Below, piece after piece: positions 56,291-64,000 of a stretch of 64,000 nt of DNA. The translations under genes were made by a program, and so were the position numbers. Numbering within the stretch: position 1 is the stretch's first letter; each line of letters begins with the position of its first letter. Location of the stretch: positions 217,710 through 281,709 of the forward strand of contig MGGJ01000001.1 of the NCBI GenBank assembly GCA_001792345.1, read 5' to 3'. This DNA is from Candidatus Woesebacteria bacterium RIFCSPHIGHO2_01_FULL_39_32. GTDB lineage: Bacteria > Patescibacteriota > Microgenomatia > UBA8517. Under the pieces are notes generated by a model that searched no databases, was not told where the DNA came from, and saw only the letters and a list, made by a program, of their open reading frames with translations.

Positions 56291-56902
56291 TTGTTATACT
56301 TCAAAAAATCCTATATTGTGCGATTGAGATTACTCGTTATCGTTCTTTTTATACTTTTGCTTATTGCTGTAGGGATAATAATTTTATTGATCAAACAGCA
56401 AAACTTTTATTTTTCTTTTGAAAAAGCCATCTCACCCACACCGACTTTAACGATAGCACCAACACAGACTCCGACACCTTCTCAAAACCCCACCAAGAAA
56501 GGGGAGTTGAATAAAAATTTTTCGATCCCGCTTACCGATTCTTCGGGTAACTTAGTAAGCGGAATTGAATACACCCTTACCGAATACGAGATAACAGATG
56601 AAATTAGAGTTAAAGGACAAACAGCAAAGGCAATTTCCGGAAGAAAGTTTCTGGTTATTAACATAAAAGTAGATAACCAGTTAGATCGCGTAATCGAGAT
56701 AAATACAAAAGACTATATAAGATTATCTGTCAATAATAGTGATAATTGGCTTGCCCCTGATATTCACAATGATCCCGTGGAAGTACAAGCTTTATCGACT
56801 AAATTTACTCGACTCGGTTTTGCGATTAACGAGAAGGATATGGGTTTTGAATTACAATTAGGAAAATTGAACGGTCAAAAGGAGAACTTACTACTTTTCT
56901 AG
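56291..56902 (+). CDS. Hypothetical membrane-anchored protein with Pro/Thr linker and beta-rich C-terminal domain
   Basis: N-terminal TM helix, a PTPTLTIAPTQTPTPSQNPT linker, and a 120-aa beta domain. Confidence 0.4.
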   Translation: MLYFKKSYIVRLRLLVIVLFILLLIAVGIIILLIKQQNFYFSFEKAISPTPTLTIAPTQTPTPSQNPTKKGELNKNFSIPLTDSSGNLVSGIEYTLTEYEITDEIRVKGQTAKAISGRKFLVINIKVDNQLDRVIEINTKDYIRLSVNNSDNWLAPDIHNDPVEVQALSTKFTRLGFAINEKDMGFELQLGKLNGQKENLLLF

Positions 56903-56960
56903 AATTACGGCCTTGATCTTCAAAGTTTTAGCGACGGAGGGAGACAAATTTGAAGAAAAA
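56902..56960 (+). repeat. 55-bp direct repeat copy 1 (GAATTAYGGCCTTG...TTAGCGAYGG...GACAAATTTGAAGAA), left boundary of the repeat-punctuated island
   Basis: About 47 of 57 positions are identical to 59900-59955; its 3' end is the island motif. Confidence 0.7.
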
Positions 56961-57278
56961 TTTGAGATGTTTGTCTACTCACTTCCGGTTACAGGTAACT
57001 CTGATTCTGTACTATCAAAAACCACTCCCCCCGTTGATTGTTCGGCTCGTGATTGGTGTACAGCACGCTGAGAGAGTCTTGTGGGATCATTTTCGGCAAT
57101 CCGAGCAGATCCATCCACGAGACAACCCCAGTGTAACCTAGTGTTTAAAGGACAACTTCCGCAAAAGGGACCTGCAGAAAAATGAGGTCTGTCCGCGCTC
57201 ATATTTAACCTTAAACAGTTAAGTGGTAATTCGCAATAAGCAATAATCTATCTTCCCGTGGAAAAGTATTATTATTAC

Positions 57279-57298
57279 AAACAAATTTGAAGAGAAAT
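57279..57298 (+). repeat. Island motif copy (degenerate: ACAAACAAATTTGAAGAGAAAT)
   Basis: Matches the CAAATTTGAAGA core. Confidence 0.4.
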
Positions 57299-57313
57299 AC
57301 TTTATTTATTTTA

Positions 57314-57466
57314 TTATCTGTTACGTATACCTTGAGTTGGCGTTGCTTCTTCCATTAATAATTCCGCGGATTGTGTAAGATAACTTAAACCATAAGCCGG
57401 GTCAAACTCTTCGAACGGATCTTTATCGGGGTTAATTGCCTTCAGTTCCCCTACAACCTCGTCCAT
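57314..57466 (-). CDS. Short ORF (50 aa) homologous to the middle of the 61056-61385 coiled-coil protein; fragment or mini-paralog
   Basis: MDEVVGELKAI... versus MDEVMGELKAI in 61056-61385. It falls below the ORF-track length cut-off. Confidence 0.3.
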   Translation of the reverse strand: MDEVVGELKAINPDKDPFEEFDPAYGLSYLTQSAELLMEEATPTQGIRNR

Positions 57467-57528
57467 TTTCTAAAAAATTACACTCTTCTGAAAGTCAAGG
57501 AAAGAGGCAAACTTCACTCATATTAAAC

Positions 57529-57723
57529 TTAAGCCTTCTCGATATATTCGATAGCCTCTTGCCCATTTGGGTATGATATTTGTATCTTATCGGTAAAGGG
57601 GCCTACGACTTTTGCAGTCAATTCAAGCCTGACTCCAAATTCTTTTAATTGTGACAATTCGGTAACCCTTTGTAGCGTTTCTTGATTCAAACCTCTTTCA
57701 AAATTTCGATCAGGCCCTACCAT
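57529..57723 (-). CDS. Hypothetical small protein
   Basis: 64-aa ORF in the island; no motif. Confidence 0.25.
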   Translation of the reverse strand: MVGPDRNFERGLNQETLQRVTELSQLKEFGVRLELTAKVVGPFTDKIQISYPNGQEAIEYIEKA

Positions 57724-57807
57724 ATATTTGATTAATTGTAATCATAACAAGTCATCTGAAAAAAGCAATTTTTCCTACATACCAGATACATATTCAAAAT
57801 TCTAAAT

Positions 57808-57829
57808 CCGGGGTCAAATTTAGGATAGA
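57808..57829 (+). repeat. Island motif copy (CCGGGGTCAAATTTAGGATAG)
   Basis: Matches GGGGTCAAATTT. Confidence 0.5.
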
Positions 57830-58102
57830 ATTCGTTATTTACGTTTTCGGAGCTGCCTGTGTATCAGAAGGGGATGTTTCAACAAAATGCGCTGCTTCTT
57901 CTAACGCATCGGGCGATAACATTGATTCAAGCGGTCCTCCCTTCTCAATATCTAAAATTACGCTTTGAATATGAGAACATCAGGACTTCTAATTATTTGA
58001 GCATTTTGTTCAGGGGTTCTTTGATCTGCCGATCCGTGACCTTTAAGTATTTCTACCATAAATGATATTTTATCAGATTAAAAGCTGGTTAAAAATTTAT
58101 TA

Positions 58103-62247: not shown

Positions 62248-62282
62248 TTATACCGTAATTCCGAACAAAAGTCGAAGAATTA

Positions 62283-62446
62283 TGGGGTCGAATTTGGAAA
62301 CAAATCATTCAGAATTATTCCAACATTCTCAAGAATGTGAGAATAGCGATCGAATGAGTTGGGATTTATAAATTGGTTATTTTGTAGAGGAGTTTGTAGA
62401 GAACGGGGGGATAGAAAATTTGGCAGGGGTCAAATTTAGAAAAAAT
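62283..62446 (+). repeat. Composite element B (motif 62283-62304, hairpin 62317-62346, spacer, motif 62422-62446)
   Basis: About 85% identical over ~120 bp to element C. Confidence 0.7.
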
Positions 62447-62466
62447 TTAGAGAATATTAACCAGTG

Positions 62467-63255
62467 CTACTTTAATTCAAATATAACATCATAATTATTT
62501 CTCGGTTGCCACGAATGATTACTATCGATTATTTCACCATTACCTCCTATTGTCCTTGTAAATACAAACATCTTTCCGTCATCAACTATATTTTGTTCTG
62601 CAAATGCTAATCCTGCTTGTGTTAAAGTGTCTTCCGATTCGACAGTGATAAAATAATCCTTTCCTCCCATCAATTGAACAGAACGATCTAAAGGAAAGAT
62701 AAACAAACTTTCTTTCGCAATGTCAGCCGCTGGAAATTTCCCGGCAGCTAACATATTAGTTAATTCAACAGTTTTCGGGTCATTCAGTTCGTAAATGTTA
62801 AGGATCAATGAATTACCAATACCAAAACTTCCTTTAAATTGGATCGACGAAATTCGCTTATTCTCTTCTTGATGAAAACTTTGTCCCATCTTTTGAGATT
62901 TATCAAACACAAATTTAACTGGTAAATAATTAGTAAAATAAGGAGGATTTTCTAGCTCATTTATTTTTTTAATATACTCGGATATCTGACTTTCTAAACT
63001 GGATATCTCCTCACTTAATCTTTCTTGTTCAGCCTTAGTCTCGGAAATCTCCTGATTTTTTTGTTCTAAACTCTCTGAAATAGAAGATATTTCTTCAGAT
63101 CGTTTGTTGCTTTGCTGATAAAAATAAGCACCAACAGCAATCGCTACTATTAAAAAAATTGAGAAAACAATAATTATAATCCACAATTTTGGTGACTTTT
63201 TTACAACTTGTTCGGGTTGAGTGTCGATTTGACTATTCGAAAGTTGCTGTTCCAC
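62467..63255 (-). CDS. Membrane-anchored coiled-coil protein with C-terminal extracytoplasmic domain
   Basis: GTG start; TM helix at residues 24-45, a Ser/Glu-rich coiled coil, and a 150-aa C-terminal domain. Confidence 0.4.
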   Translation of the reverse strand: MEQQLSNSQIDTQPEQVVKKSPKLWIIIIVFSIFLIVAIAVGAYFYQQSNKRSEEISSISESLEQKNQEISETKAEQERLSEEISSLESQISEYIKKINELENPPYFTNYLPVKFVFDKSQKMGQSFHQEENKRISSIQFKGSFGIGNSLILNIYELNDPKTVELTNMLAAGKFPAADIAKESLFIFPLDRSVQLMGGKDYFITVESEDTLTQAGLAFAEQNIVDDGKMFVFTRTIGGNGEIIDSNHSWQPRNNYDVIFELK

Positions 63256-63328
63256 TTATATAAATTTAAAGTAACTGAAACTTTCAGTCAATAGCCGCCA
63301 ATCGAAAAAATATTTAATAAATATATTT

Positions 63329-63350
63329 TGGGGTCAAATTTGGAGAAACA
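63329..63350 (+). repeat. Island motif copy (TTGGGGTCAAATTTGGAGAAAC)
   Basis: Intergenic between 62467-63255 and 63372-63782. Confidence 0.6.
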
Positions 63351-63371
63351 GTTAAGTATGGAGGTTGCGCT

Positions 63372-63782
63372 CTAATATTTTATAAAAACACTTAAAATGA
63401 GGGGTAATAAAAAATCACTTGCGACAAGAATTGTTGCCAAGATTATCGCAGACCGAGGATTGTTAATTTTAATAGTAACAAATTTTCTGGAACTTAACCA
63501 CAAAATAAGTGAAAAAGCTAATATTTTAAATACGTAATTAATAAAAACCGAAATGATTCCTAAAAACGCAAAGAACGATAACTGTACCATAAATATTTCT
63601 GCTGCCGACCATAATAATTGGAGAAAGAAAGCAAGAACTACAGACGTTTTTAAAGATAAACTTACACCTATTCTAAGCCATTTTGATACATATAAAATAA
63701 TAGCGTTAATTAAAAACTTAATTAATAAACCCAGCAAAATTATTATTAAAAATGCTCGCGCAAAAGATTCAAGCATAAACAA
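63372..63782 (-). CDS. Small polytopic membrane protein (4 TM)
   Basis: Hydrophobicity pattern only. Confidence 0.35.
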   Translation of the reverse strand: MFMLESFARAFLIIILLGLLIKFLINAIILYVSKWLRIGVSLSLKTSVVLAFFLQLLWSAAEIFMVQLSFFAFLGIISVFINYVFKILAFSLILWLSSRKFVTIKINNPRSAIILATILVASDFLLPLILSVFIKY

Positions 63783-63837
63783 ATTATCAGTTTACAATAA
63801 TTAGGTTTATCATGCCAATTTATGTTCAATATTTATT

Positions 63838-63984
63838 CGGTCAAATTGGGAGAGTATTGTGTTATTCCAACATTCTCAAGAATGTGAGAATAGCAATTCA
63901 ATGGGTTGGGATTGGTAAATTGGTTTTTGTATGAGAGAGGGGAGGGGTTAGAAAATTTGGCAGGGGTCAAATTTGGAGAAATAT
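63838..63984 (+). repeat. Composite element C (motif 63838-63854, hairpin 63864-63893, spacer, motif 63958-63984)
   Basis: Same architecture as elements A and B. The island continues beyond the window end. Confidence 0.7.
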
Positions 63985-64000
63985 TCATACGTTCTGCTGT

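Follow-up and report, generated by a model that had tools for sequence, protein, structure and literature searches.

At one end of a 64-kb stretch of DNA from the tiny groundwater bacterium Candidatus Woesebacteria RIFCSPHIGHO2_01_FULL_39_32, a member of the candidate phyla radiation (CPR), small accessory and defence genes are punctuated by copies of a conserved 19-bp motif. The whole stretch is referred to as the window; the FtsZ protein encoded on it is 100% identical to that of the named genome. The island is tentatively interpreted, at somewhat less than even chances, as a cassette array in which the motif represents the exchange junction for a recombinase encoded elsewhere. That it belongs to an undescribed cassette-recombination system of Woesebacteria, served by a recombinase acting in trans and having evolved as an integron analogue independently of IntI/attC, is a possible but rather doubtful extension of this interpretation. 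An earlier note on this DNA had described a cassette-like, repeat-punctuated island of accessory and defence genes, and this description held: modules differ between related contigs and homology stops at the motif.

The coding-strand consensus of the motif (minus strand of the window, which is the gene strand) is TTTCTYCAAATTTGWCCCC, comprising 19 bp with an 8-bp palindromic core, CAAATTTG, between the unlike arms TTTCTY and WCCCC. Searching the window for the literal pattern GGGGTCAAATTTGGAGAAA with up to three mismatches yielded ten matches, all on the plus strand between positions 56,940 and 63,981, compared to a mean of 0.06 matches in the shuffled window. Scoring of both strands with a position weight matrix (PWM) trained on the visible copies recovered 14 copies in the same interval (56,940–63,981), all as plus-strand matches of 15–31 bits. 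No copy was found on either strand in the other 56.9 kb of the window, where the top score was 11 bits. The earlier note was right in counting 14 copies and none in the preceding 56 kb. Its general 10-bp palindromic core had to be given up, since the palindrome TCAAATTTGA occurs in a single window copy (61030), nine copies carry the 8-bp CAAATTTG and the complete motif lacks symmetry. The claim that a copy follows the stop codon of each gene stands for minus-strand open reading frames (ORFs) whose stop codons are followed by a motif at 2–25 nt, but not for the NucS-like gene and a 64-aa gene, which have no copy after them. Likewise, the small genes are mostly co-oriented on the minus strand as proposed, but the Amidase_3 gene lies on the opposite strand and three inter-motif segments of the window contain no gene. 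The copies are listed below in gene orientation; the lower coordinate is the start of the plus-strand match.

63963..63981, minus strand: motif copy TTTCTCCAAATTTGACCCC, 31.1 bits
63837..63855, minus strand: degenerate motif copy closing gene-less segment A1, 17.7 bits
63330..63348, minus strand: motif copy 23 nt past the stop of the 136-aa membrane protein gene, 31.1 bits
62426..62444, minus strand: motif copy 22 nt past the stop of the 262-aa gene, 25.7 bits
62284..62302, minus strand: motif copy closing gene-less segment A2, 23.6 bits
61540..61558, minus strand: motif copy 2 nt past the stop of the Cas4-like gene, 28.4 bits
61413..61431, minus strand: motif copy closing gene-less segment A3, 24.9 bits
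61030..61048, minus strand: motif copy, the sole one with the 10-bp palindrome TCAAATTTGA, 30.0 bits
60647..60665, minus strand: motif copy of the TTTCTTCAAATTTGTCCCC subtype, 29.1 bits
60360..60378, minus strand: motif copy of the TTTCTTCAAATTTGTCCCC subtype, 29.1 bits
59938..59956, minus strand: motif copy 2 nt past the stop of the 101-aa coiled-coil gene, 23.1 bits
57810..57828, minus strand: degenerate motif copy, 17.2 bits
57277..57295, minus strand: degenerate motif copy, 15.1 bits
56940..56958, minus strand: final motif copy of the array, beyond which only element B and the stop of the convergent host gene are located, 26.7 bits

Three copies are degenerate (57277, 57810 and 63837). Motif subtypes cluster within the window, TTTCTTCAAATTTGTCCCC-type copies being located in the ftsZ-proximal half (56940–60665) and TTTCTCCAAATTTGACCCC-type copies in the distal half (61030–63981), which suggests local duplication or gene conversion inside the array.

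Exact-pattern scans detected further arrays in approximately a dozen metagenome contigs with a G+C content of 33–39% and in a single GTDB contig, CAZVJU010000031.1, which has 11 copies. Two more arrays, both fully bounded, were reached through homologues of a recurrent coiled-coil protein, namely those of Woesebacteria GW2011_GWB1_39_12 (L095; 11 copies in 9 kb), which the exact-pattern scans had missed, and RIFCSPLOWO2_01_FULL_37_19 (L099; 11 copies in 9.4 kb). Single exact matches in GTDB genomes numbered 24, compared to approximately 17 expected by our own chance estimate, and among the GTDB genome matches an array was present only in the CAZVJU contig. The search of other genomes and metagenomes, proposed in the earlier note, found motif arrays in at least 12 other contigs. 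The 13 non-redundant arrays contain 89 motif copies, none of them reversed. In an alignment of 71 non-redundant copies, information content is at background right outside the 19 positions and the flanks are unrelated; furthermore, the consensus is unchanged across species whose FtsZ proteins are only 81–86% identical. Since conservation stops abruptly while the flanks are unrelated, selection acts on exactly the 19-bp site. Within 30 nt past the stop codon of a co-oriented ORF, 54% of the motif copies were found, compared to 8% of random array positions. The 76 inter-motif segments comprise 53 with a forward gene, 14 with a reversed gene and nine without a gene; each module holds one to a few genes, and motif spacing has a median of 562 nt (range 84–7546 nt in the 13 arrays).

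Contig CAZVJU010000031.1 (13.3 kb, comprising L006 and L019) is labelled as Gammaproteobacteria and has a G+C content of 36%. It is circularly permuted relative to metagenome contig L064, and its end joins its start exactly. A circular plasmid is disfavoured because the second breakpoint cuts a gene, so that a Woesebacteria-like array, co-assembled into a chimera and mis-binned, is the more probable explanation. One more candidate, contig L177 from a 'giant virus' metagenome-assembled genome with four 15-mer matches and the only viral contig with multiple matches, turned out to carry an unrelated 168-nt non-coding tandem repeat.

Arrays were compared with each other by all-against-all blastn, considering high-scoring segment pairs (HSPs) of at least 100 nt and counting as crossing those with at least 40 nt of homology on both sides of a motif. 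None of the 45 inter-array HSPs crosses a motif, similarity staying within single inter-motif segments, and HSPs end at a motif in 19% of 5' ends and 29% of 3' ends versus 5.5% expected. A BrnT/BrnA-type module is 83% identical from motif to motif in L028 (6343–6902) and L053 (5871–6431); the alignment breaks at both motifs, the outer sequence is unrelated and the neighbouring modules differ. Moreover, a HicAB pair constitutes a motif-bounded module in L073, whereas the window genome has it inverted and motif-free beyond the limits of its array. In related contigs, the modules separated by this motif are different ones and differently ordered. Because homology is confined to single modules and the HicAB pair occurs inside and outside of arrays, the arrays appear to be mosaics of independently assorting modules with the motif as their junction.

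In the proposed mechanism, modules would be gained, lost and reshuffled at the motif. The latter would represent a 19-bp double-stranded recombination site composed of the 8-bp palindromic core and unlike arms, the unlikeness of the arms giving the site its polarity. A hypothetical recombinase, encoded elsewhere in the genome, would act on this site in trans, and the units inserted, excised and reshuffled would be defence and toxin-antitoxin modules with promoters of their own, arranged behind a restriction-modification (R-M) 'head'. The logic would be integron-like (one module, one site, fixed orientation) with different machinery. In a weaker form of the proposal, the conserved 19-mer would merely provide microhomology for RecA-type exchange. 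A recombination site is supported by multi-gene units, such as toxin-antitoxin pairs and the convergent NucS-like/amidase genes, behaving as one module, by a palindromic core with unlike arms as is typical of polar recombination sites, and by the sharp conservation of exactly 19 bp across species. The restriction of homology to single modules, the patchy distribution at one locus and the typical cassette cargo also argue for it.

Several results weigh against the motif as a recombination site. No recombinase is recognisable inside or within 3–9 kb of the three fully bounded arrays. Among near-identical population contigs, no presence/absence polymorphism of modules was found and module order is identical; likewise, no circular module was seen and direct evidence of mobility was not found. 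Motif variants, considered on either side of a module or for either motif half, do not co-segregate with homologous modules, identities being at background, so no crossover point can be inferred. The top shared modules are only about 83% identical, and exchange is therefore old or its sampling sparse. The motif is not required for variability, because the same region is hypervariable in relatives without it. Finally, the post-stop bias (54% versus 8%) and the co-orientation of the motif with most genes fit a role in transcription equally well. An apparent 61-bp deletion in the NCBI assembly (L086) was recognised as a scaffold gap of Ns.

Such a transcriptional role would consist in oriented punctuation: a trans-encoded DNA- or RNA-binding protein, recognising the motif as an asymmetric site, would block or end transcription arriving from the upstream module, as at the stoperators of mycobacteriophage L5, thereby insulating independently promoted and potentially toxic defence or toxin-antitoxin genes from each other, and mosaicism would have arisen secondarily through homologous exchange at the conserved sites. 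This explanation is not probable, yet it deserves serious consideration. Without exception, the 89 copies share the orientation of the majority of genes, 54% of them within 30 nt past a stop codon, and window modules possess their own strong sigma-70-like promoters near the start codons. Hairpin terminators are not enriched in the array (two terminator-like sites versus 4.9 expected), so another separating device would be needed. The lack of a nearby recombinase and the position of the last copy, where array transcription would meet the convergent host gene, are also consistent with punctuation. However, 14 of the 76 modules contain reversed genes with no reversed motif after them, and gene-less modules exist. 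Reversed and empty modules are expected of recombination units and not of a signal tied to gene 3' or 5' ends, which favours an exchange site. Co-oriented genes within one module without an intervening motif, as well as the motif-free 7-nt gap between the NucS-like and amidase genes, also disagree with punctuation. The arrays have no binding protein in common, the sole winged helix-turn-helix (wHTH) gene being confined to one genome, and the motif shows no RNA or DNA structure. Furthermore, punctuation alone does not account for homology never crossing the motif. The two leading readings, recombination and transcription punctuation, are not mutually exclusive.

Alternatively, the motif could be a functionless relic of an ancestral cassette end, multiplied by tandem duplication and gene conversion in a hypervariable defence hot spot, with illegitimate or homologous recombination replacing the genes afterwards. 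Each array repeatedly contains coiled-coil paralogues whose upstream and downstream regions are similar, adjacent window copies share a subtype (TTTCTTCAAATTTGTCCCC at 56.9–60.7 kb), and degenerate as well as split copies exist, all of which would be in line with this origin. It is nevertheless unlikely, given that conservation ends sharply at the 19-mer with unrelated flanks in most of the 71 aligned copies, that the same consensus is retained across species with FtsZ identities of 81–86%, and that copies flank modules of wholly unrelated genes. In the split copies, TTTCTYC and CAAATTTGACCCC are 14–45 nt apart (L028 ~6895–6935; L085 ~4755–4830 and ~6725–6770), which hints at a breakpoint between these two parts. 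The sequence AAACTCAGGAC is common to two of the inserts and also occurs just downstream of an intact motif (L053 6447). At a minority of junctions, a short, variable GC-rich hairpin and a TAGCTTCACAC-like box are located 8–35 nt upstream of the motif, e.g., at CAZ 1342, L073 514 and 1880, L048 824, L099 17688 and L085 6174. By strict count, such a hairpin precedes 7 of 90 copies versus 32 of 778 controls (approximately twofold), and as a minority feature it was rejected as part of the site.

In order to follow the array past the window end, the window was extended via contigs encoding the 262-aa island protein (window coordinate = 73256 minus L085 coordinate). As the earlier note had anticipated, the array continues for 4.2 kb, with six more PWM copies in addition to degenerate and split copies recognised by eye, and it encloses the obg gene. 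The whole array comprises approximately 20 copies in 11.5 kb, of which the window holds the ftsZ-proximal 7 kb. The obg gene, encoding a housekeeping GTPase of 317 aa, lies in reverse orientation; together with a 137/156-aa gene it occupies L085 7721–9243 (plus strand of the window), with motifs and copies of a gene-less repeat, element A, on both flanks. In the three relatives whose rplU-rpmA region is visible, rpmA is followed by parB, and no obg gene was called anywhere in the loci L091, L094 and L095 (L093 stops short of the region). The first motif copy of the window array is preceded by genes for a MwoI-like endonuclease, an N6/N4 methyltransferase and a HicAB pair; the last one is followed by a convergent host gene and then ftsZ. 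No recombinase domain was recorded in the 20.8-kb locus, and the search for a recombinase or phage structural genes suggested in the earlier note came back empty for the same locus. No tRNA or tmRNA was found. Cumulative GC skew of the window climbs until ~54–56 kb and then drops, coinciding with the switch from the plus-strand dcw cluster to the minus-strand island, and the turn may be an effect of the coding strand and not a landmark of replication.

The arrays are located in the variable region that follows the dcw/ftsZ cluster. Relatives were compared at the ftsZ site, as likewise recommended earlier: three related Woesebacteria (RIFCSPHIGHO2_01_FULL_38_9, RIFCSPHIGHO2_01_FULL_39_17 and RIFCSPLOWO2_01_FULL_39_23; FtsZ 83–88% identical) carry other variable genes after ftsZ and no motif, and GW2011_GWB1_39_12 (FtsZ 86% identical) harbours its 11-copy array after ftsZ. 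The latter array is co-oriented with ftsZ; the window array is opposed to it. In one of the motif-less relatives (L093), another short repeat, TAAAATACAGGCAGGATGA, is located upstream of three genes (16826, 17650 and 18388), one of which encodes a Ser_hydrolase homologous to array cargo elsewhere.

This chromosomal setting bears on the possibility, likewise raised in the earlier note, of a prophage or phage-derived element such as an early-gene region or a lysis module. The Amidase_3 protein matches phage endolysin families, and weak Rz-like and XhlA-like matches were obtained for coiled-coil proteins. A phage origin is nonetheless very improbable: no phage structural, replication or integrase genes were found in the 20-kb loci, a phage collection (50,697 records) and plasmids showed no similarity to the array, and no array was detected among 2.9 million IMG/VR contigs. 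In addition, obg lies inside the array and the arrays reside in the chromosomal region downstream of the dcw/ftsZ cluster. Classification as a dispersed repeat (repetitive extragenic palindrome or miniature inverted-repeat transposable element) was rejected because of the single orientation and the absence of copies from the adjacent 56.9 kb of chromosome and from the flanks of other arrays. An array of clustered regularly interspaced short palindromic repeats (CRISPR), already dismissed in the earlier note for irregular spacing, was rejected as well, with spacings of 84–7546 nt and genes between the copies.

The modules and further elements of the window are as follows.

63856..63962, minus strand: gene-less segment A1 (element A), apparent remnant of a wHTH-regulator cassette
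63372..63776, minus strand: gene for a 134/136-aa multi-pass membrane protein without family assignment
63263..63291, minus strand: sigma-70-like cassette promoter (consensus matches only)
62467..63255, minus strand: gene for a 262-aa protein with an N-terminal transmembrane segment and a coiled coil, weak matches only
62303..62425, minus strand: gene-less segment A2 (element A), apparent wHTH-cassette remnant like A1
62247..62275, minus strand: sigma-70-like cassette promoter (consensus matches only)
61561..62238, minus strand: PD-(D/E)xK (PDDEXK_1, Cas4-like) nuclease gene, 225 aa (Pfam)
61432..61539, minus strand: gene-less segment A3 (element A), apparent wHTH-cassette remnant, more diverged
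61056..61322, minus strand: small coiled-coil protein gene with paralogues across many arrays
60691..60975, minus strand: 94-aa orphan gene
60606..60633, minus strand: sigma-70-like cassette promoter (consensus matches only)
60390..60599, minus strand: 69-aa orphan gene
59959..60264, minus strand: 101-aa coiled-coil protein gene
59894..59937, minus strand: element B copy immediately following a motif on its 3' side and preceding the promoter of the NucS-like gene, 81% identical to 56896–56939
59851..59879, minus strand: sigma-70-like cassette promoter (consensus matches only)
58794..59840, minus strand: NucS_C / PD-(D/E)xK nuclease gene (Pfam)
58130..58786, plus strand: Amidase_3 (N-acetylmuramoyl-L-alanine amidase) gene with a signal peptide-like N-terminus, reversed within its module (Pfam)
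57529..57723, minus strand: 64-aa orphan gene
57314..57466, minus strand: 50-aa ORF, a fragment related to the coiled-coil gene at 61160–61215 (79% over 56 nt)
56975..57202, minus strand: 75-aa orphan gene, the last gene of the array
56896..56939, minus strand: element B copy flanked by the final motif and by the stop codon of the 203-aa host gene, which is convergent

Pfam confirmed the Amidase_3, NucS_C/PD-(D/E)xK and PDDEXK_1/Cas4-like assignments of the earlier note. Its 'holin-like' membrane proteins found no support beyond weak coiled-coil and Rz-like matches. For the NucS-like protein, PADLOC gave a match to the candidate defence family PDC-S02 (1e-51); the corresponding gene ends 7 nt from the convergent amidase gene with no motif between them. 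A 45% identical homologue of the Cas4-like nuclease is encoded in another array (L006 4207–4890). The 101-aa coiled-coil family comprised 48 proteins in the search, with named sources mainly from Woesebacteria, and the remaining small window proteins are orphans or coiled coils according to Pfam. Element B is a 44-nt repeat present as an 81% identical pair with a weak 5–6 bp hairpin (CTTTGA...TCAAGG).

An intact winged-helix (ArsR/MarR-like) gene of 89 aa is located past the window end (L085 6892–7161). The palindrome ATTCTCAcattcTTGAGAA lies upstream of this gene and again at its 3' coding end, and in the element A remnants the gene's upstream region is fused to its 3' end at ATTCTCAcattcTTGAGAA. 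Judged from their sequence, the element A segments look like the wHTH cassette after loss of the interior from one palindrome to the other. This palindromic sequence occurs six times in this array (L085 6845, 7132, 7625, 9365, 10912 and 11788) and also at L019 6435, and it could plausibly serve as the operator of the wHTH regulator.

Most modules appear to have a promoter of their own, and strong sigma-70-like promoters with 10–11 of 12 consensus matches were identified 6–10 nt ahead of cassette start codons. Because these promoters end so close to the start codons, several island genes may have leaderless mRNAs. For example, the 69-aa orphan gene is preceded by TTGATA-N16-TATAAT, ending 6 nt ahead of its ATG, and its mRNA is predicted to be leaderless.

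The separate promoters also bear on the idea of the 19-mer as a reiterated promoter, recognised by a dedicated RNA polymerase or sigma factor in the manner of phage T7-type or early-gene regions and driving each downstream gene. A contiguous, conserved, intergenic 19-mer co-oriented with the genes would suit such a function. Moreover, a few modules carry TTGACC, a sequence contained in the motif, 16–17 nt before a good -10 box (e.g., L085 5119 and 5582). However, a -10-like hexamer follows 16–18 nt further on in only 6 of the 89 copies, the same as at other offsets, and the motif was rejected as a sigma-70 -35 element in the absence of a -10 box at fixed spacing. The flanks are not conserved, the distance to the start codon varies from 26 to 179 nt, and the sigma-70-like promoters are located downstream of the motif. 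No intact copy precedes the first gene of the array, a convergent gene lies opposite the last copy, 14 modules contain reversed genes, and no RNA polymerase or sigma factor gene is present in or near the arrays. A promoter function is therefore quite improbable. An intrinsic terminator was rejected as well, the motif forming no hairpin.

Proteins encoded by modules across the arrays comprise PDC-S02-type and Cas4-like nucleases, GmrSD, a NERD nuclease and an SNase homologue. Further products are an HsdS subunit, a radical-SAM/SPASM protein, a SET-domain protein and a serine hydrolase, and toxin-antitoxin modules are of the BrnT/BrnA, Gp49/HTH and HicAB types. In addition, many orphans, membrane proteins and multiple paralogues of two small coiled-coil proteins were found. 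Coiled-coil homologues also occur outside arrays as single genes without the motif (L097 10001–10264, L098 10001–10267 and L100 10001–10231), in housekeeping contexts next to NUDIX (L097, L098) or TatD (L100) genes; the motif is thus no fixed companion of this protein family. Every array with a visible 5' end (in motif orientation) has an R-M system just ahead of its first copy. The types comprise a MwoI-like enzyme with a methyltransferase, an Eco57I-like type IIG enzyme (twice), CfrBI with a methyltransferase, and BsaWI with a LexA-S24-methyltransferase fusion. These heads are located at:

L085, 2098–4418: R-M head
L095, 1–1096: R-M head
L099, 6475–8795: R-M head
L028, 3–2203: R-M head
L019, 2084–4876: R-M head

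Cargo of this kind is shared with integrons, and the earlier note had raised the integron model. A classical integron cassette array or a cluster of attC sites lacking an integrase (CALIN), operated by attC and IntI, would account for one polar site per module, compact cassettes, some of them reversed or gene-less, and defence and toxin-antitoxin cargo. The occurrence of independent cassettes in varied arrays and orders, with none of 45 HSPs crossing a motif, also agrees with it. However, integron cassettes would mostly be promoterless and expressed from Pc at the array head, and the cassettes described here carry their own sigma-70-like promoters. Instead of an attC site of 55–140 nt (R''-L''...L'-R'), conservation covers only 19 nt and does not extend into the flanks. 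The folding of junctions on both strands, proposed earlier as a check for attC-like hairpins, gave no signal: for the motif with 40 nt on either side, mean z-scores of 0.10 (top strand) and -0.03 (bottom strand) were obtained over 79 junctions, no better than for shuffled sequences. No inverted partner copy was found on either strand (0/89 reversed), and Rfam returned no match for the island at a permissive threshold or for the whole window at the gathering threshold. No tyrosine recombinase lies beside the three complete arrays. The model did not survive these results and is hardly credible. A literature search retrieved nothing relevant on the motif or on integron-like arrays in CPR bacteria.

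As a cassette array with an exchange junction, the island still resembles integrons and CALIN in its compact tandem modules with one conserved, co-oriented site each and occasional reversed or gene-less cassettes, in its small defence, toxin-antitoxin and orphan cargo, and in the presence of the same cassette in different arrays beside different neighbours. It differs in its 19-bp duplex-type site, which lacks an R''-L''/L'-R' imperfect palindrome and a single-strand fold, in the R-M system replacing IntI/attI at the head, in self-promoted cassettes and in the CPR host. The pdif modules of Acinetobacter plasmids are bounded by XerC/XerD sites, i.e., 28-bp dif-like sequences that alternate in orientation and consist of 11-bp arms on either side of a 6-bp spacer. 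They share with the arrays small accessory modules, short recombination-type sites and the lack of a dedicated recombinase within module or array, a host enzyme presumably acting in trans, whereas the sites described here are 19 bp long, all direct and chromosomal, and no resemblance to dif was recognised by eye. Tycheposon islands of Prochlorococcus grow by tandem accretion at one att site, with tRNA-derived repeats, and each element has or had an integrase. In both cases, short att-like direct repeats punctuate unrelated cargo at a fixed chromosomal hot spot, but the modules of the arrays are far smaller (0.3–2 kb) and neither a tRNA nor integrase remnants are present. Recombinase-free core defence hot spots are known, e.g., from Pseudomonas and E. 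coli. They likewise represent variable defence regions between housekeeping genes without mobile-element markers, but have no internal conserved junction repeat. Phage stoperators are 13-bp sites distributed across the whole prophage and bound by the phage repressor. They were reportedly described for mycobacteriophage L5 and cluster A phages by Brown et al. (EMBO J, 1997). Many short, asymmetric, intergenic sites in one orientation relative to transcription are common to stoperators and the arrays. The arrays differ in that no phage and no repressor gene common to them is present and that their sites coincide with module-exchange boundaries; the sole HTH gene of the window array (L085 6892–7161) is confined to this genome, and its likely operator is a different palindrome. 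By analogy, the architecture appears closest to integrons and CALIN in logic, to pdif modules in relying on an enzyme in trans, and to L5 stoperators in site geometry.

To our knowledge, the genomes of CPR bacteria are tiny, none of these bacteria is available as a tractable culture, and the acquisition and turnover of their defence genes are largely uncharted. If the motif is a recombination site, it would represent a second, independent solution to the problem solved by integrons and a compact site-specific recombination system. Should it prove to be a transcription roadblock, phage stoperators would have their counterpart on a chromosome, and gene regulation in the phylum would have a first point of entry. 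In either case, accessory-gene arrays in Woesebacteria metagenomes can be located simply by the motif, and the orphan modules located among known defence genes are candidates for new defence functions.

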